From sequence record MH560358: a DNA stretch of 64,000 nucleotides. One strand, 5' to 3'. This stretch comes from Escherichia virus KFS-EC. Position numbers and translations under genes: made by a program. How positions within the stretch are numbered: position 1 is the stretch's first letter; each line of letters opens with the position of its first letter. The notes beneath the pieces were generated by a model. It did not search any database, was not told the origin of the DNA, and worked only from the letters and a program-made list of their open reading frames with translations. Below are positions 23,401-60,867 of this stretch, one piece after another.

Positions 23401-24332
23401 TGTTTGATTTAAATGACTTTAACGAACAAGCCGCTAACCTTGACTTTCAGCGATCTAACTTATTCAGCGTGGCATTTGCCACCACTCCAAGTAATAAGAC
23501 ACAAGCGATCCTAGAAAGTATGGGCGGTGCGGTATATGATATTATACCAAATGCATTAAATGACTATTTCGGGATTACTCGTGGTGATTATACTGACGCA
23601 TTAACAAATCTTGCTGTACAGGGTGTTAGGCGTGCTGTTGATTCATCTGGTGTCAAAAAGTATCTTTTAGGTGCAATGTCATCCCGCGTAGTTCAATCTC
23701 TTCTGGGGCAATTTGATGTTGGTACGTATGCTCTTGACTGGTTCAATATGGCATATAAGACAAGCGGTCTTCTGGTGTATGCTGTTAAGGTTCCAGAAAA
23801 CAGATTGAATTATGAAATGGACCGCAATCACAATGCACCAAACATTCGAATTACCGGACGTGATTTTGACCCGCTTGTATTGAGCTTTAGAATGGACTCT
23901 AGCGCATCAAACTATAGAGCAATGCAGGATTGGGTTAACTCAGTAGAAGACCCAGTTACAGGGCTTCGTGCGCTTCCTGTTGACGTTGAAGCAGATATTC
24001 AGGTTAACTTACATAACCGAATGGGAGTTCCTCACACGATCATGATGTTTAATGGTTGTGTTCCTGTTGGTGTGAGTGCACCGGAATTAAACTATGAAAA
24101 CAACAACGAAATCACAACATTCGATGTTACTTTCGCATATCGTTCTATGCAAACTGGTGCTGTAGGAGAGCAAGCCGCGCGAGAATGGATTGAGGATAAG
24201 GCAATAAACGCAATAACAAACACTTTCGGCAATAATTTACTTGATAGTGGGTTATCTGCTGCTGGTAATGCTTTATCGCGTCTAAATGGCGTTGGTGGGC
24301 GTGTGGTGAATACTGTCACTAACTGGTTCTGA
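23400..24332 (+). CDS. 54: Baseplate tail tube initiator gp54
   Basis: 310 aa; strong similarity to T4 gp54 (NRLNYEMD, RALPVDVEADIQVNLH). Confidence 0.9.
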   Translation: MFDLNDFNEQAANLDFQRSNLFSVAFATTPSNKTQAILESMGGAVYDIIPNALNDYFGITRGDYTDALTNLAVQGVRRAVDSSGVKKYLLGAMSSRVVQSLLGQFDVGTYALDWFNMAYKTSGLLVYAVKVPENRLNYEMDRNHNAPNIRITGRDFDPLVLSFRMDSSASNYRAMQDWVNSVEDPVTGLRALPVDVEADIQVNLHNRMGVPHTIMMFNGCVPVGVSAPELNYENNNEITTFDVTFAYRSMQTGAVGEQAAREWIEDKAINAITNTFGNNLLDSGLSAAGNALSRLNGVGGRVVNTVTNWF

Positions 24333-24342
24333 TGAACGAAAG

Positions 24343-24370
24343 GCGGGGATTATCCCCGCCTTTTTATTTT
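24343..24370 (+). terminator. Rho-independent terminator after gene 54
   Basis: GGCGGGGAttaTCCCCGCC hairpin followed by TTTTTATTTT; overlaps the stop of the convergent lipoprotein gene. Confidence 0.7.
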
Positions 24371-24834
24371 GCTAAATCATTGCAATATTTTAGTGCCTTA
24401 GTTTGAAATTCTGCGCTGTTAAGTTCTTCATAACGGTCATAATCACCGTTTAATGCTGCCTTTCTTGCTTCTTGCTCTATCTGCATGTCAGACATGATAA
24501 TACAGCGATCCCGCGCTTTCATCTTCTCAAGTTGTATAGACTCTTCTTTCTGCTTGCGCAATTCTTCTTGACGCTTCTTTTCTTCTTGTGCTTCTTTGAT
24601 TGCATCCTTGAACATCTGCGTTTGTGGTGCTAAACCAACTTTAACGCGATCCACGTCTCGACGTTCCATTTTAGAAATAAAGCACGATTCGATCTGATCA
24701 TCACTTGCATATGCTGCTTTACATTCACGAAGCAAGAAAACCGGATCTGATTTAGCATTCATCATAGCTTCCATGTTGGCACAACCAGTAAGCATGAATG
24801 CAGCCGCAAGACCAATCAGTTTAATCATTTTCAT
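24364..24834 (-). CDS. Putative lipoprotein (156 aa)
   Basis: N-terminal signal peptide with lipobox LTGC; charged coiled-coil-like remainder; ATGA overlap with the upstream ADP-ribosyltransferase gene. Confidence 0.55.
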   Translation of the reverse strand: MKMIKLIGLAAAFMLTGCANMEAMMNAKSDPVFLLRECKAAYASDDQIESCFISKMERRDVDRVKVGLAPQTQMFKDAIKEAQEEKKRQEELRKQKEESIQLEKMKARDRCIIMSDMQIEQEARKAALNGDYDRYEELNSAEFQTKALKYCNDLAK

Positions 24835-25655
24835 TTAGTCACCTCACCGAAAATTGTAAATTGTCTACGATTCTCATCGCCGAAAGATTCTACTACGTCG
24901 TTTACCTTGACGCAAGTCCCGCGCGGTAAAATTACTTCACATTCGCAAGGGTTCCATGCAATTGACCCAACAACAAAACCTTTATGATCTTTTACGTCAA
25001 TTACCCATGATACATTACAAGAATGTTGCATCTTTCCGGTCATTGATTCATATCGATTCTCACAATAAAGGCTAGTGCTGTTTGATAGCCATCCTCCAAA
25101 GATGATTGGTGTCATGCTGGTTGACACAAAGTTTTTAAAGGTAAATTCCTTATCTTCAATAATACGCTCTATTGTCTGAATGTCAAGATGTTGACCGCGA
25201 TAAAGAGTACCGTTTAACTTTTCGGTTTTATCCATGACACAATCCATCAAATCGACAATCTCTGATATCTCATCGGTCATGTCTTCTTCCCCTAAGAGAG
25301 CACCATTTACCCATTCGTATTGCTCAGACACATAATCACAGATTGCATTATATTCTGCTGGTGTTATGTTGTTATGTTTGTAATGTTTGAATACATTATC
25401 TCCAAAGTCTTCGGAGTGTACTTCATACATCACATTAATGATTTTCTTGACAAATCCATAATCTTGTGTCTCACGCTCAAGGAAGCGGATAACCTTCACA
25501 TAATCATCAAAGTTAATCTGATCGCTGATCATCTCAGTGATCATGTAACCATTAATCCCCTCAATGTCATATGTTTCGATGTAATTATCCATACGTTCCA
25601 TCATTGATTCGCGTGATTCTTCTGAAAGACGAAAATCCTGTAATTTCTTGAACAT
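24831..25655 (-). CDS. ADP-ribosyltransferase, Alt/Mod-like paralogue (274 aa)
   Basis: C-terminal half carries the R-S-E triad context (LYRG...FVSTS...CECEVILPRG) shared with the Alt catalytic domain. Confidence 0.65.
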   Translation of the reverse strand: MFKKLQDFRLSEESRESMMERMDNYIETYDIEGINGYMITEMISDQINFDDYVKVIRFLERETQDYGFVKKIINVMYEVHSEDFGDNVFKHYKHNNITPAEYNAICDYVSEQYEWVNGALLGEEDMTDEISEIVDLMDCVMDKTEKLNGTLYRGQHLDIQTIERIIEDKEFTFKNFVSTSMTPIIFGGWLSNSTSLYCENRYESMTGKMQHSCNVSWVIDVKDHKGFVVGSIAWNPCECEVILPRGTCVKVNDVVESFGDENRRQFTIFGEVTK

Positions 25656-25673: not shown

Positions 25674-25710
25674 CAGAAAACGGGGCTAGTATAAAACTAG
25701 TCCCCGTTTT
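25674..25710 (-). terminator. Imperfect hairpin between alt and the ADP-ribosyltransferase paralogue
   Basis: CGGGGCTAG...CTAGTCCCCG stem flanked by T/A tracts on both sides. Confidence 0.4.
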
Positions 25711-25733
25711 AGTCAACCATTATTTCTTAAAAA

Positions 25734-27785
25734 TTACATTTTAAATTTATCTGGCATTGCGTCTACAGATACCAGATCAGCGATAAGCTGACGTAGAGTT
25801 GCCTTATCTGCTTTCTTACGTTCGGTTTTAGCTTCGCTAATGAAGCTGGAGAAAGACAGGTCAGAAGCAGGTTTAACAACACCTTCACGGATGAATGCAT
25901 CACCGTCCGCGATCATCTCGCCAGATTCTTGTAATGCTGCCAGTTCATTTTTGTTCATAATATGTGCCTCAATGTAATAAGTTTCTTGTGAATCCGTCGA
26001 TGCCGTAGCACGAGTTACCGTATCAAAGGATAACACAACACCGCGAGGAAGTAAAATCTCGCATTCTTTGTAAGCAAATGCTTTGTTACCTACTGGCAAG
26101 ACAGGGAGGTTTTCCGCGCCAGCAATGGAGAAAGCAACATTAGCGCCACCTTCACCACGAGAGCCAGCCATAGAATCAACACCAGCAACGGCACTAGCCA
26201 CGTTTGCATTCCAGCCGCCAAAAATGTTAGGTGCAAGGGAAGTGCTCACATAGTTTTTAAAGTAAAACGCTTTTTGCTTACGTGCAGTTTCCCACATTTG
26301 CGACCGGAAGTCCATACCACGATACAGAATAGTACCCGGATCAAGTTTAACGCCATAGTTGGAGAAGGCATTATCCAGTGCATCGCACATCTTGACCAAT
26401 TCTTCTGGATCTGAGATGCCTTCAAACTCTTCCAGCTTACGGTCGGTTAGGAAGTTGTTCATATTGATGTATGCTGCATCGGCATATTCGCTCAACACAA
26501 AACCTTCCGCGCCTGGCAGATCAAGATCAATATCTGCCATCATTTCACCCATGTTGCTAGCAATTGCTTCAAACATACCGGAAGCAACATTACGTAGGGC
26601 ATCGGTTTTAATCTGGGTGATGTGACTACGCAGCATTTCAGCTTTTACATCTGCTGGCATAGACTGGTCTACTCGAACCATTGCTAGGGCGGTGATCTTG
26701 TTTTCGAATACTTCCTCGCTCATGATTTCTTTTAAGCGTTTGATTGATGCTGCGATAACTTCCGCAGACAACGGATCATATTGATCCTGAACTTTTACCA
26801 GTTCGCTTACTGCGTATTTTGCATCGGCTTCGCTTTCAAAAATAGTACGCATGAAACCATAGCGAGTGATAATATCACTTGTCCAGTCATTCAGAGAACG
26901 GGCGGTTGAACGTTCTAAGGCTTGACGATCAATCAGAGTATTAAACTGTTTCTTAGGTTCGGCTTCGGTGATATCTTCTTCCGGTTTAAGATTAATTTTT
27001 TCTGGATGATTCACATAGTCGCTGTTATAGGTCGCTTGAGTTTTCAGCATTTCTTCTTTAGTCAAACGAGATTTAGCCGCTACGCGTTGTTCCGCTTCCG
27101 CGTTTCGTTCTTCTTCTGACACAAGACTAGCCGCATACGCCTCATCTTTAGTCAGTGATTCACCAGTAGCCTTAGATACCCAGCGATCACCTAAATCACT
27201 TTCTACTTTAGTGAACAAGGATTCATCAAGTTTAATCCCTTTAATCTTATCAATCGCCATACCGCGACGCTTGACAACAACTAAAGCGATCTTTTTGCTG
27301 GTCATTACTTCCTGCTGGAATACTTCAAACTTCGGTGTACGACGCACCAAACGCTCTATAACGCGCTTAACCAGTTCGGTCTTACCTTTCATGCGGGATA
27401 CGTTAAAACGGAACATAACAGCGTCTAATTGCGCTTTACGGGCTGTTTCCATAACCACATCAAAAGCACTTGCCATGACTGCAATCGGGTTATCGCCTAG
27501 ACCATTTTTAAGCTGTACAATACGACCGCTTTTGTTCATTTCGCACAGTACAACATGTGCGGTCTTGTCACCCATACGAATGATTTTAGGTGTTTTGTTG
27601 GTGAAGTTACAAAGACGGACAATCACATCTTTATCGCGTGTCTGTACTGCAAAAAGCTGTTTAGGATTCTGCTTAGGCTTTAAGCACTGTACAGGAGCAA
27701 TACTGCCAAAGTTTTCTTCCTCTTCCGTCAACAGCCATTTCTCGAAAGATTCAATCATTAGATCGTCGATTTCTAAGTTAAACAT
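25734..27785 (-). CDS. alt: ADP-ribosyltransferase Alt
   Basis: 683 aa (T4 Alt is 682); C-terminal domain with ILYRG...YVSTS...ECEILLPRG. Confidence 0.9.
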   Translation of the reverse strand: MFNLEIDDLMIESFEKWLLTEEEENFGSIAPVQCLKPKQNPKQLFAVQTRDKDVIVRLCNFTNKTPKIIRMGDKTAHVVLCEMNKSGRIVQLKNGLGDNPIAVMASAFDVVMETARKAQLDAVMFRFNVSRMKGKTELVKRVIERLVRRTPKFEVFQQEVMTSKKIALVVVKRRGMAIDKIKGIKLDESLFTKVESDLGDRWVSKATGESLTKDEAYAASLVSEEERNAEAEQRVAAKSRLTKEEMLKTQATYNSDYVNHPEKINLKPEEDITEAEPKKQFNTLIDRQALERSTARSLNDWTSDIITRYGFMRTIFESEADAKYAVSELVKVQDQYDPLSAEVIAASIKRLKEIMSEEVFENKITALAMVRVDQSMPADVKAEMLRSHITQIKTDALRNVASGMFEAIASNMGEMMADIDLDLPGAEGFVLSEYADAAYINMNNFLTDRKLEEFEGISDPEELVKMCDALDNAFSNYGVKLDPGTILYRGMDFRSQMWETARKQKAFYFKNYVSTSLAPNIFGGWNANVASAVAGVDSMAGSRGEGGANVAFSIAGAENLPVLPVGNKAFAYKECEILLPRGVVLSFDTVTRATASTDSQETYYIEAHIMNKNELAALQESGEMIADGDAFIREGVVKPASDLSFSSFISEAKTERKKADKATLRQLIADLVSVDAMPDKFKM

Positions 27786-27853
27786 TTTATATCCTCTAGT
27801 TGATAACCTATAAACCTATATTTATGAAAACGGGGATTAACGCCCCCTTTTTA

Positions 27854-28066
27854 TTATAATGCACCATCAAGCAATTGCTCTAAGGTGTATCCTGAATAGT
27901 CTTTTTCAATCAGGATATATTTTCCTACTCGTTTAATACAACCACGCATTTCAACGTATTCTGCGTAGTTGATGGTACGAGTTGTTCCATCTTCCAGTAA
28001 TGCAGTACCGATTTCGTTAATGCGGTCATAAGTTACGTCGGTAATGATGATTTCGATGTTAGCCAT
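27854..28066 (-). CDS. Hypothetical protein (70 aa)
   Basis: Start moved to internal ATG (MANIEIIITD) with TAAGGAGT ribosome binding site; the track start lies inside the promoter. Confidence 0.5.
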   Translation of the reverse strand: MANIEIIITDVTYDRINEIGTALLEDGTTRTINYAEYVEMRGCIKRVGKYILIEKDYSGYTLEQLLDGAL

Positions 28067-28102
28067 TTGATACTCCTTAGTAGTTCGTTTCGGTATGTGT
28101 GC

Positions 28103-28131
28103 ATTATAGGGGATCACCGATCCCCTGTCAA
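28103..28131 (-). promoter_or_regulatory. PeSL-type early promoter (TTGACA, GGGGATCggtGATCCCC, TATAAT)
   Basis: Minus strand: -35 TTGACA, 17-nt spacer that is a perfect GC palindrome, -10 TATAAT, then conserved leader ending in a ribosome binding site. Confidence 0.6.
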
Positions 28132-28138
28132 CAACTTT

Positions 28139-28657
28139 TTAGTTATTTTTTAATTGTTCATCTTGCAATAATGCAATCACATGCTGGCGATGTTCTTCCG
28201 ATTGAGGTACACCGAAAAAGTTTGTTTTGTAGAAATACTCTAATCGGTCTTCTCGTGTGCTCTCTTCCATCATGATCGCGGGTAGTCCGAGATTTCGGAA
28301 ACGTCGCTTTTCTGCTGGCGTAAAATCACTGTAATACAACATAGAATCATCATTACAAGCAATGCTAAACTCATCTTTCATAAAGGAGAATATTGCGTTT
28401 AAACGCTGTTTACCGTCCACGATTTCGATCTCATAGCGAGAGCCATCATCAATCTTAGCCATTGCGATAGCACCAACCGGAAAATCATTAATCAGGTTTT
28501 CGATAAACATACGTTTGTTTTCGGTGTCCCATACCAAAGGACGCTGATAATCTGGGTTCATGTTGATATAGCCATCTTCTAACCATGCTTCGTAAACAGA
28601 GATGACAAAGTTTTTAGTATTGGTATAGTAACGGCGTTTAGGCGTTAAACGGTTCAT
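28139..28657 (-). CDS. ParB-like / DUF262-like protein (172 aa)
   Basis: DYQRPLVW and DGKQRL motifs typical of the DUF262 ParB/Srx-fold domain; ATG placed 1 nt after the upstream stop. Confidence 0.55.
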   Translation of the reverse strand: MNRLTPKRRYYTNTKNFVISVYEAWLEDGYINMNPDYQRPLVWDTENKRMFIENLINDFPVGAIAMAKIDDGSRYEIEIVDGKQRLNAIFSFMKDEFSIACNDDSMLYYSDFTPAEKRRFRNLGLPAIMMEESTREDRLEYFYKTNFFGVPQSEEHRQHVIALLQDEQLKNN

Positions 28658-28658
28658 G

Positions 28659-28991
28659 TTATAGTCTCCTGAATGGATCATCACGTAAATCAATATCTTT
28701 TAAGAACTCATCCCATGAATGGCGGATATTGTTCTTAATTCTCCAGATAAGCGCAGGGATTGAACGCTCTCCCATCTGGAAGTATGGATCATATGATCCG
28801 TATGACCAATATGCTACTACAATTCCACAATCAGCGCAATAGTATTCTATTTCACTTGCTGGCGACCAAAGTCCATCAATATGATCGGTGATCTTGCTTT
28901 CGATGTTATGGCTATGACAATCAGGGCAACGGATGCAATGACCTTGTTTATCGTAATTTGACGTTAGAGAATACTTAAACAATCTCATCAT
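28659..28991 (-). CDS. Zinc-ribbon protein (110 aa)
   Basis: CIRCPDCHSH ... YYCADCG, two CxxC pairs; ATGA overlap with the upstream methyltransferase-like gene. Confidence 0.5.
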   Translation of the reverse strand: MMRLFKYSLTSNYDKQGHCIRCPDCHSHNIESKITDHIDGLWSPASEIEYYCADCGIVVAYWSYGSYDPYFQMGERSIPALIWRIKNNIRHSWDEFLKDIDLRDDPFRRL

Positions 28992-60100: not shown

Positions 60101-60867
60101 CTTTCTGTAAGATTGACGATTCTGGATCTGTTGAGCATTATGCCTTTGCTATGGAACGTGACGGCGATGCGTTAGCATATAGAGACTTCATAGCAGGTCG
60201 TAACCTGTATGCGAAACAAGGCGGTTTATATATTGTAGACCACGCCAATCCGGCAATGACTCGCTCTACAGACGGTATGTTGAATATCGGTCACGGTGGA
60301 AGTGTTAACATCAAAGCCGGTTATCAGAATCTGACTACAGAGATCGCAGGACAGAAATACCAGATCGTTCACGCAGGAAACGCAGACGAAGTTCTCGACC
60401 GTCAGTTTGTCAAGAATGCTGGCGATACGATGACCGGAAAGCTGATTATGGATAATGCGCCTATTGTTTCTGTTAAGCATGAGGCTATCGCGGCAACCGC
60501 TCCGGCAATCGGTAACATCGGTTTCTGGAACATGCGAGTAACTACCCAAAACATCAAAGAAACCTATCCAGAGAAGAAAAACGGCACATTGATGCAATGG
60601 GGTACTGATGAAAACGGCCTTACCCAAATCTGGTCGCCTGATGGTACTCATAAGCATTATATCCGTTCCGGTACAGATGGTCAATGGACCGCATGGGGCG
60701 AAATTTACACCAAACAGAACAAGCCTACCGCTCAGGAAATCGGGGCAGTTGTTGCCGAAGGTGGATTGATGAACTCTATGACGGTTCGTGACTGGATCAA
60801 GGTTGGTAATGTTAAAATTATTGCCAATAATCTGACTCGTACCGTAGATTTTATCTGGGAAGACTAA
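57127..60867 (+). CDS. 34: Long tail fibre proximal subunit gp34
   Basis: 1246 aa; N-terminus similar to T4 gp34 (PTRGY, RALRTD); position after rnh. Confidence 0.85.
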   Translation: MADFSQHFKATFGFDAGNEKVVNVAYADKNTSTDAVNVEFFNYHNGITQYDTTRGYDQYGTTIYQNRPYYAKEDITKPAGDFDPTKWQALRTDPRWDYIAATSGDTPLKSGDYIAADGQFANLTFSMPTKPAEGDTITVKDIGGKCGVNELSFLSSGHEFYHNGNVYNRKWYCTTPYAMNYFIFVRNRWHVYQTGTEPRGVYAQPAIDAIQMQNGDQVFRRSSLGNITLVLPKFANNGDMIQTTDLDGLTATNHVTVKVHEHAEEQSIGTSGLKEIIGKRSGHGVFIFDKTENLWRLWDGDQSVRLKPIIDDTRLQPNSYVAVFGGRDVTLTLPTNVEPGDRIQVSMQYMHGNQNCRIITPTEDTKILMPKNMVQFPKRSEYPFNGTDTWKEVSELSFNAASDYVPYLEFSYSEGDDGKKYWLVAHAHPIVERVDPTRKARVGVIALATQTETNKNHEENPSDEVAVTPKMLANKTANETRRGIARIATQAETHQDTGSNFMDDVIVTPKKLNDCVATEARRGVMEIATQHETNEGLDDTRAITPKKLEERRASEDLAGIAEIVQAGGSAAARRGEAGTGIYNINDHAKIVTPQNINEVKATETSRGVGYLATDAEVQGATESTPQDALLITTRTLTKRTATESRTGIAEIATQEETNLGQSDNHIITPKKLHTRRATETLHGLAEIATQPEFDAGLDDARISTPLKIKTFFENAQRLKVDPTQGLNLTGDLWQGIMISGLDATEDTKGVAKVATTQLTDAGQDDTTIITPKKLQGKKATEGKEGIIRVGTQDETVAGTMDNVAISPKNFKYVVQTEETWQATEARRGFLKVATQENCFVGDNLQGSTQELDEYQHDGIAVTPKGLNYALANFLPKMATAQNSLKLGNVEAAKWARRDIDQTIESNYTFNKNVNLKGDLECLKSGSFETLFVTKNSTDDPSNGHLVLGERGVDGHTGITLHGTTLSEGMENSWSIIVGGTGTAQAVNSDAIAFCKIDDSGSVEHYAFAMERDGDALAYRDFIAGRNLYAKQGGLYIVDHANPAMTRSTDGMLNIGHGGSVNIKAGYQNLTTEIAGQKYQIVHAGNADEVLDRQFVKNAGDTMTGKLIMDNAPIVSVKHEAIAATAPAIGNIGFWNMRVTTQNIKETYPEKKNGTLMQWGTDENGLTQIWSPDGTHKHYIRSGTDGQWTAWGEIYTKQNKPTAQEIGAVVAEGGLMNSMTVRDWIKVGNVKIIANNLTRTVDFIWED

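Follow-up and report, generated by a model that had tools for sequence, protein, structure and literature searches.

ADP-ribosyltransferases (ARTs) of phages are under active study, with RNAylation by ModB, the action of Alt on MazF and ART-based defence and counter-defence as examples, and work so far has concentrated on the three T4 enzymes Alt, ModA and ModB. About 40 copies of Alt are carried per T4 head. The T4 protein is synthesised late and packed in the head, and the prohead protease gp21 cuts a small N-terminal peptide from Alt as well as from internal proteins (PMC9958956). Additional copies of alt have been described, RB49ORF183c, 44RRORF188c and T4 alt.-1/alt.-2 being paralogous duplications of that gene (Nolan et al. 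2006, PMC1524935). The present analysis concerns such a copy in Escherichia virus KFS-EC (sequence record MH560358), within a stretch of 64,000 nucleotides (nt) referred to below as the window. Here alt is followed by the gene for a short Alt-like ADP-ribosyltransferase of 274 amino acids (aa), corresponding to open reading frame (ORF) 183 of RB49 (RB49p183) and named ART2 in this text, and then by a lipoprotein gene corresponding to RB49 ORF182 (RB49p182). These two downstream genes rather probably form an early accessory operon that combines a non-packaged, cytoplasmic, host-modifying ART with an independent envelope lipoprotein, the latter possibly serving superinfection exclusion.

A first-pass annotation of the window, made from the sequence alone, had considered the pairing of an ART with an exported lipoprotein unfamiliar, and had set it against a T4 complement of Alt, ModA and ModB. 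The pairing is real and conserved in all lineages examined; the ART2 paralogue itself is not new, having been described in 2003–2006 and carried in annotations for twenty years. Duplication of alt is common, and T4 relatives carry further alt copies besides the three enzymes named. What is new is the invariable ART2–lipoprotein module across lineages, the conserved early-type promoter embedded in the alt terminator, which implies a temporal split of the paralogues, and the character of the lipoprotein as an orphan, swappable cassette independent of the evolution of the enzyme.

The region is matched at 90–99% nucleotide identity by 57 phage records, all of them RB49-like T4 relatives, and each matching record whose taxonomy was checked belongs to the genus Krischvirus. 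Gene order is that of RB49, with the baseplate genes 27-28-29-48-54 on the plus strand and alt, ART2 and the lipoprotein gene on the minus strand, converging on gene 54 (Table 1).

Domain, catalytic residues and fold of ART2

The Pfam family PF03496 (ADPrib_exo_Tox) is matched by residues 82–266 of ART2 (E 4.3e-16, 59.3 bits versus a cut-off of 23.4), and a BLASTP comparison with the neighbouring Alt gave E 8e-17. Profile–profile alignment with hhalign placed residues 69–273 of ART2 on residues 397–610 of Alt (probability 99.9%, E 9e-35), while residues 1–68 showed no similarity to Alt in a PHROG scan or with hhalign (probability 0.2%). The proposal that the C-terminal half of ART2 is Alt-like was correct as to the motifs, which lie where they had been placed (LYRG at 151–154, FVSTS at 176–180 and EVILPRG at 240–246); the Alt-like part nevertheless amounts to about three quarters of the protein, and the accompanying claim of a different N-terminal half has to be given up in favour of a unique segment of only the first ~68 residues. 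Conversely, Alt residues 1–396 and 611–683, i.e. about 400 N-terminal and about 70 C-terminal residues, are without counterpart in ART2, which therefore does not have the full-length architecture of a T4 Alt orthologue.

The catalytic residues were compared in a MAFFT alignment containing ART2 of the window, six more distant relatives (identity as low as 41%), a T4-type alt.-2 product, another truncated copy and Alt of the window. R153, the S-T-S triad at 178–180, E238 and E240 are invariant across that alignment, together with a Y...N...L helix motif preceding E-x-E, and a metagenomic copy of ART2 (locus L020) retains all of these as well. The first-pass annotation had named loss of the catalytic Glu or Arg in a careful alignment as the observation that would speak against its assignment; R153, E238 and E240 are all present. 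With its profile match, the motif order Arg / S-T-S / [Q/E]-x-E and an ART fold, ART2 has the features of the R-S-E (cholera-toxin-like/ARTC) enzymes. Its structure model is compact and confident, and the best structural matches are toxins encoded with immunity genes (Tre1/Tri1 and Lmo0066). The suggestion that an Alt paralogue adjoins alt is thus confirmed by the Pfam, BLASTP and hhalign matches, by a complete R-S-ExE set and by the fold. E-x-E is the form known from arginine-specific ADP-ribosyltransferases, and since ART2 has E-x-E, arginine mono-ADP-ribosylation is its expected chemistry.

ART2 is 97–100% identical in 57 of 57 isolate genomes, 34 records being identical at the protein level, and PHROGs holds a dedicated family for it (phrog_15144, 'ADP-ribosyltransferase'). 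No relation to ModA or ModB was detectable (BLASTP E 0.41 to T4 ModA and 0.069 to the RB49 Mod protein). The protein has no signal peptide, and its gene is preceded by its own conserved promoter and ribosome-binding site.

Transcription signals and timing of the paralogues

The 78-nt spacer that separates ART2 from the upstream alt contains a hairpin followed by UUUUCU, resembling an intrinsic terminator for alt transcripts; none of 200 shuffled sequences gave an equally stable structure, and the hairpin is kept, with changed stem bases, in six lineages. Built into it is a predicted σ70 promoter of early type, whose −10 element lies inside the hairpin. The site is likewise annotated as a promoter in phage GEC-3S, and its TTGAC and TAT.(A/C)T elements are kept even where ART2 is only 40–44% identical. 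The block conserved in six lineages, metagenomic phages included, reads TTGAC(A/T)..AACGGGG....TTTTATACT..CCCCGTTTTCT, with the stem bases changed. Early promoters of RB49 prefer G at −33 in the −35 region (Nolan et al. 2006, PMC1524935), and the GTTGAC of the ART2 promoter agrees with this preference.

The late-promoter motif NATAAATA was not found in the 78-nt spacer upstream of ART2. Upstream of alt, a late-promoter-like sequence stands just past another hairpin, an arrangement that recurs in the distant metagenomic lineage L008 and in T4-like loci; the homologous position holds AATAAATA in the former and TATAAATA in the latter, and a NATAAATA-type late motif precedes alt in three lineages. 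The late-type promoter expected of a T4 Alt orthologue is thus found at alt and is absent from ART2, and its presence at alt is in keeping with T4 Alt being synthesised late and packed in the head (PMC9958956). The paralogues would presumably be separated in time, Alt being made late for the next host and ART2 early in the current one. Because the N- and C-terminal parts of Alt have been lost and an early-type promoter is found instead of a late-type one, ART2, unlike T4 Alt, is probably not packaged.

The opposite possibility is that ART2 belongs to the virion, as Alt does. It would then be produced late or persist until then, enter the head by means of a short targeting or cleavage peptide at its N-terminus and be injected together with the DNA. 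Removal of an N-terminal peptide from T4 Alt by gp21 (PMC9958956) provides the precedent, an L-x-E motif occurs within the N-terminus of ART2 (MFKKLQDFRLSE), and the MAFFT alignment places this N-terminus opposite the start of Alt (MF..N..I). However, (L/I)-x-E is so short as to be uninformative, and its position is not fixed across ART2 lineages. Moreover, the whole N-terminus of about 400 residues found in Alt is missing, the gene is preceded by a conserved σ70-type promoter with no late-promoter motif, and the ART2 transcript would be common to an exported lipoprotein, all of which makes packaging of ART2 unlikely.

The stop codon of ART2 overlaps the start codon of the lipoprotein gene by 4 nt (AAATGAAAATG), as the first reading of the sequence had reported. 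Since the genes overlap and have a single conserved promoter upstream and a single terminator downstream, they are presumably co-transcribed. The downstream terminator, common to the operon and gene 54, is annotated on both strands in GEC-3S. A near-consensus σ70 sequence, TTGACA-16-TATTAT (25186..25159, minus strand), inside ART2 and about 330 nt before the lipoprotein start, was considered as an internal promoter for the lipoprotein gene and set aside; it is probably incidental, as the codons for L-D-I...R-I-I generate the motif, which is absent in L008 and located elsewhere in the metagenomic lineage L016.

The lipoprotein

The N-terminus of the lipoprotein (MKMIKLIGLAAAFMLTGC) consists of a basic n-region, a hydrophobic core and the lipobox L-T-G-C, in agreement with the earlier description of a signal-peptide/lipobox protein. 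As a candidate substrate sequence for Lgt and LspA, MKMIKLIGLAAAFM-LTGC18 fits the pattern [LVI][ASTVI][GAS]C near residue 15–25. No other ORF of plausible size in the window and the RB49 loci has a strict lipobox, the only further match being a 43-aa ORF (60402-60533, minus strand). The Lol rule assigns lipoproteins with Ala at +2 to the outer membrane, and the lipoprotein, which has Ala at this position, is predicted to be sorted there.

Among 14 representatives of the family, G17, C18, the cysteines at 38, 51, 111 and 151, D60, G67 and G130 are invariant. The AlphaFold2 model is composed entirely of helices (pLDDT, the predicted local distance difference test, 87.5) with a central helix of 58 residues, which is K/E-rich and of variable length. 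C38 and C51 are placed on neighbouring helices, as are C111 and C151, and this arrangement, together with the invariance of the cysteines, suggests two periplasmic disulfides. The lipoprotein of the window has 156 aa, most relatives have 161 aa and one has 172 aa; the difference is due to short indels in the K/E-rich helix (window 24560-24600, minus strand; residues ~80–95).

When 1.84 billion representative proteins were searched exhaustively with a profile, only 12 representatives of the family (at 50% identity) were returned, those examined having 155–175 aa. The family is phrog_16112 (function unknown) in PHROGs, and UniProt names the KFS-EC protein, whose sequence is 100% identical, 'Lipoprotein'. 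Domain searches found no ARH, macro or other ADP-ribose-removing domain, and the protein showed no sequence or fold similarity to the known exclusion proteins Cor, Llp and T4 Sp.

Constant pairing and cassette exchange

The Krischvirus-type alt, ART2 and lipoprotein genes are each present in 57 records of the phage collection. None of the 57 isolate genomes lacks the ART2–lipoprotein pair, which also occurs in four divergent metagenomic lineages (L008, L016, L019 and L020), where a member of the lipoprotein family likewise lies directly downstream of ART2 and upstream of gene 54. Identity to ART2 of the window is 40–44% in L008, L016 and L020, which have complete genes; L019 holds a C-terminal ART2 fragment only, and no identity was computed for it. 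In all lineages the two genes either overlap, by up to 8 nt, or are separated by no more than 1 nt. In L008, ART2, the lipoprotein and Alt have diverged in step (44%, 39% and 45% identity, respectively), which indicates long vertical co-inheritance of the three genes. A scan of IMG/VR for further loci yielded two near-identical contigs only.

A different picture is obtained within the genus. In eight Krischvirus genomes (Whisky, JK32, PHB13, E26, AV108, 011D4, G37-3 and PTE-Eco09) the lipoprotein is only 28–32% identical to that of the window and ART2 is 98–100% identical; in Whisky and JK32, the two examined in detail, Alt is 99.4% identical. A sliding comparison revealed nucleotide identity of ~98–100% through alt and ART2, an abrupt fall to ~40–55% just past the lipobox codons and only a partial recovery inside gene 54. 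The signal peptides of Whisky and the window do not differ, and the mature part alone has been replaced. Even the common allele, with 89–96% identity and indels in the K/E-rich helix, is more variable than ART2. Judged by these comparisons, the lipoprotein is a swappable cassette that evolves independently of ART2, and it varies in the manner of a cassette subject to diversifying or frequency-dependent selection. Where the alternative allele is present (eight genomes), the divergent patch extends into the end of gene 54 (window 24207-24332, plus strand); gp54 is 86.5% identical there, versus 99.7% in RB49, the last ~40 residues being changed most.

Exchange of the lipoprotein with ART2 unchanged argues against a specific protein–protein partnership, and indicates that the genes are physically linked rather than that their products work as a pair. 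The alternative is a functional two-component system in which the lipoprotein regulates, neutralises or is required for the enzyme in toxin–immunity style, or in which the enzyme acts on the envelope pathway of the lipoprotein. Co-occurrence in each metagenomic lineage checked and in every one of the 57 isolate genomes, the consistently tight junction and the structural resemblance of ART2 to toxins with immunity genes would suit such a system; yet the two products belong to different compartments, ART2 having no signal peptide and the lipoprotein being exported, the lipoprotein has no domain for removal of ADP-ribose, and its mature part is replaced without co-evolution of the enzyme. An ART toxin–immunity pair of the Tre1–Tri1 type has an adjacent ARH/macro hydrolase or an active-site blocker in the same compartment, an arrangement that this locus lacks, and a two-component function is considered very doubtful. 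A further alternative regards ART2 as a decaying, inactive remnant of the alt duplication, a view that could also be taken of the split T4 alt.-1/alt.-2. In its favour, tandem alt duplicates, full-length or split, are common beside alt in T4 relatives (PMC1524935). ART2, however, retains all catalytic residues down to ~40% identity, is 97–100% conserved in 57 genomes, gives a compact and confident model and has its own conserved promoter and ribosome-binding site, which makes this alternative highly improbable.

Proposed function of the operon

The early accessory operon favoured here would have originated by tandem duplication of alt in Krischvirus-type T4 relatives. One copy would have shed ~400 N-terminal and ~70 C-terminal residues and acquired a short new N-terminus, retaining the complete arginine-type (R / S-T-S / E-x-E) catalytic domain that binds NAD (nicotinamide adenine dinucleotide). 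ART2 would be made de novo in the opening minutes of infection, through transcription by the host RNA polymerase from the σ70 promoter built into the alt terminator, and would mono-ADP-ribosylate host proteins in the cytoplasm, i.e. serve as a host-takeover or counter-defence enzyme. The lipoprotein gene would be translationally coupled to the ART2 gene; after Sec-dependent export and lipidation at Cys18, the lipoprotein would reach the outer membrane (Ala +2) and fold in the periplasm as a disulfide-stabilised helical protein. Its role would most likely be a separate one in the envelope, such as exclusion of superinfecting phages or envelope protection, so that it shares the early transcript with ART2 without being a partner of the enzyme. 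Timing of expression, activity of ART2, localisation and the role of the lipoprotein are inferred.

An exported, early and fast-changing protein of a lytic phage suggests a function in conflict at the envelope, such as superinfection exclusion. The RB49 annotation (L018, which is RB49 1-50000, L024 and L025) lists no motA, asiA, imm, sp or gene 42, and T4 Spackle (Sp) gave no match in the window or in the ~97% of the RB49 genome that was searched. With no annotated imm or sp and no Spackle match, there would be a vacancy for an exclusion function in RB49. By analogy, the lipoprotein may be an exclusion factor, an assignment that is tentative and somewhat doubtful. A single mod gene is annotated in RB49, between srd and gene 56. 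Cytosine is unmodified in RB49 DNA.

Several observations weigh against this proposal. The ART2 promoter is called by consensus and conservation only. Library, profile and fold searches returned no relative of known function for the lipoprotein, whose role is therefore guessed by analogy, and literature searches (for ORF182/ORF183 and for Krischvirus with lipoprotein or ART) returned no functional study and no expression, activity or localisation data for any member. Strict co-occurrence and translational coupling could reflect an unseen functional link. Receptor masking tied to the phage's own adhesin was examined as the simplest model of exclusion and rejected, as both lipoprotein alleles (A and B) occur with both gp38 classes.

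In a further-reaching version, ART2 would be an ART of independent evolution and early expression that fills the place of T4 ModA, its invariable coupling to a fast-evolving outer-membrane lipoprotein would constitute a coordinated 'inside-outside' early takeover module, in which one transcript provides both for protein modification in the cytoplasm and for closure of the envelope, and the lipoprotein would found a new class of T-even superinfection exclusion replacing Imm/Sp. The suggestion about ModA is based on the presence in Krischviruses of only one Mod-type gene, which is closer to ModB; this version as a whole is speculative and appears improbable.

Current concepts are left unchanged by these results, which fill in the accessory biology of a known phage group. 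A compact enzyme of 274 aa without a packaging part, 97–100% conserved in a genus used for phage therapy, is an easy biochemical target and may reveal new host substrates. The late-type promoter of alt versus the early-type promoter of ART2 presents a clean, testable case of a duplicated effector split in time. Two sharply different lipoprotein alleles in otherwise near-identical phages are a pattern typical of genes in phage–phage or phage–host conflict.

Features of the locus

Table 1. Positions of genes, catalytic codons and predicted signals of the alt–ART2–lipoprotein locus in the window.
Feature	Position	Strand	Details
alt, 683 aa, full-length Alt-type ADP-ribosyltransferase, parent paralogue	25734..27785	-	phrog_802 E 5e-179; PF03496 E 1.9e-9; RB49p184 alt
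ART2, 274 aa, RB49 ORF183	24831..25655	-	helical unique N-terminus 1-68; Alt-type ART domain 69-273
Lipoprotein, 156 aa, RB49 ORF182 (RB49p182)	24364..24834	-	signal peptide and lipobox codons 24781-24834 (Cys18)
R153 codon of ART2	25197-25199	-	predicted catalytic Arg
S178-T-S180 codons of ART2	25116-25124	-	predicted catalytic S-T-S
E238-C-E240 codons of ART2	24936-24944	-	predicted catalytic ExE
Hairpin then UUUUCU between alt and ART2, intrinsic-terminator-like for alt transcripts	25677..25710	-	RNA fold -22.3 kcal/mol, z -6.3
Putative σ70 early-type promoter TTGACT-17-TATACT	25688..25716	-	consensus scan; -10 inside hairpin; A/T-rich stretch upstream
Late-promoter-like CATAAATA, just past hairpin, upstream of alt	27819..27826	-	read directly in sequence
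Terminator-like hairpin upstream of alt late-type motif	27847-27832	-	hairpin scan
Predicted bidirectional terminator hairpin common to operon (-) and gene 54 (+)	24338..24364	.	12-bp stem, 7 GC pairs, T-runs both sides

Upstream of alt there is a run of short transcription units of early type. One of these comprises an ORF of 87 aa (27854-28117), which is preceded by a sequence with a perfect 12/12 match to the σ70 consensus, TTGACA-17-TATAAT (28103-28131, minus strand). An ORF of 184 aa at the position of RB49p187 (28139-28693, minus strand) has a DGKQR-type motif that may resemble DUF262/ParB-like nuclease domains.

Comparison with known systems

Among the closest known systems is T4 Alt, an arginine ADP-ribosyltransferase of the Alt/VIP2 family that is packaged in the head. 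It shares with ART2 the homologous catalytic domain with R / STS / ExE, the PIIFGGW and EVILPRG blocks and the position in the genome, and differs in having residues 1–396 and the ~70 C-terminal residues, in place of which ART2 has a new N-terminus of 68 residues, and in its late-type rather than early-type promoter. In GenBank, RB49p183 carries the note 'similar to C-terminal part of T4 Alt protein'.

Further tandem alt duplicates between alt and gene 54 are T4-type alt.-1/alt.-2, the full-length alt.-2 of RB32 and the second alt of 44RR and of Aeromonas phage Riv-10, which has two full-length alts; in T4-like contigs alt.-1/alt.-2 are split. Like ART2, the T4-type alt.-2 product retains R, STS and ExE, but the T4-type copies represent independent truncation states, are only ~32% identical to ART2 and are followed not by a lipoprotein gene but by alt.-3. 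The latter was considered as a counterpart of the lipoprotein because of its identical position and was rejected, as it encodes a 96-aa cytoplasmic protein (DUF5498) without signal peptide; its sole known phenotype is the escape of C-terminal extension mutants from CmdTAC (PMC11618068). The T4-type alt.-2 product with the catalytic residues retained (415 aa; L011:3183-5248, L006:2747-4804; P0048) is found at at least 95% identity in ~400 Tequatrovirus phage records, and T4 relatives may thus possess a fourth ART, one that is unstudied, in addition to Alt, ModA and ModB.

ModA and ModB of T4 resemble ART2 in predicted lifestyle, each being a small, non-packaged ART made early from a host-type promoter, and differ in that no sequence relation is detectable, ART2 belonging to the Alt/VIP2 branch. 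RB49 has Alt, ART2 and a single Mod-type gene, which matches T4 ModB (E 8e-11) better than ModA (E 2e-6). On sequence grounds the genus has three ARTs, like T4, the third being of different origin. From the bacterial R-S-E toxins (Tre1, Lmo0066, Vis, C3 and VIP2/iota) ART2 is distinguished by being phage-encoded, without a delivery domain and without an adjacent immunity gene of the ARH type. Finally, the lipoprotein is similar to Llp of T5, the Cor lipoproteins of phi80 and N15 and Spackle of T4 in being a small, exported protein of a lytic phage that is variable between close relatives.

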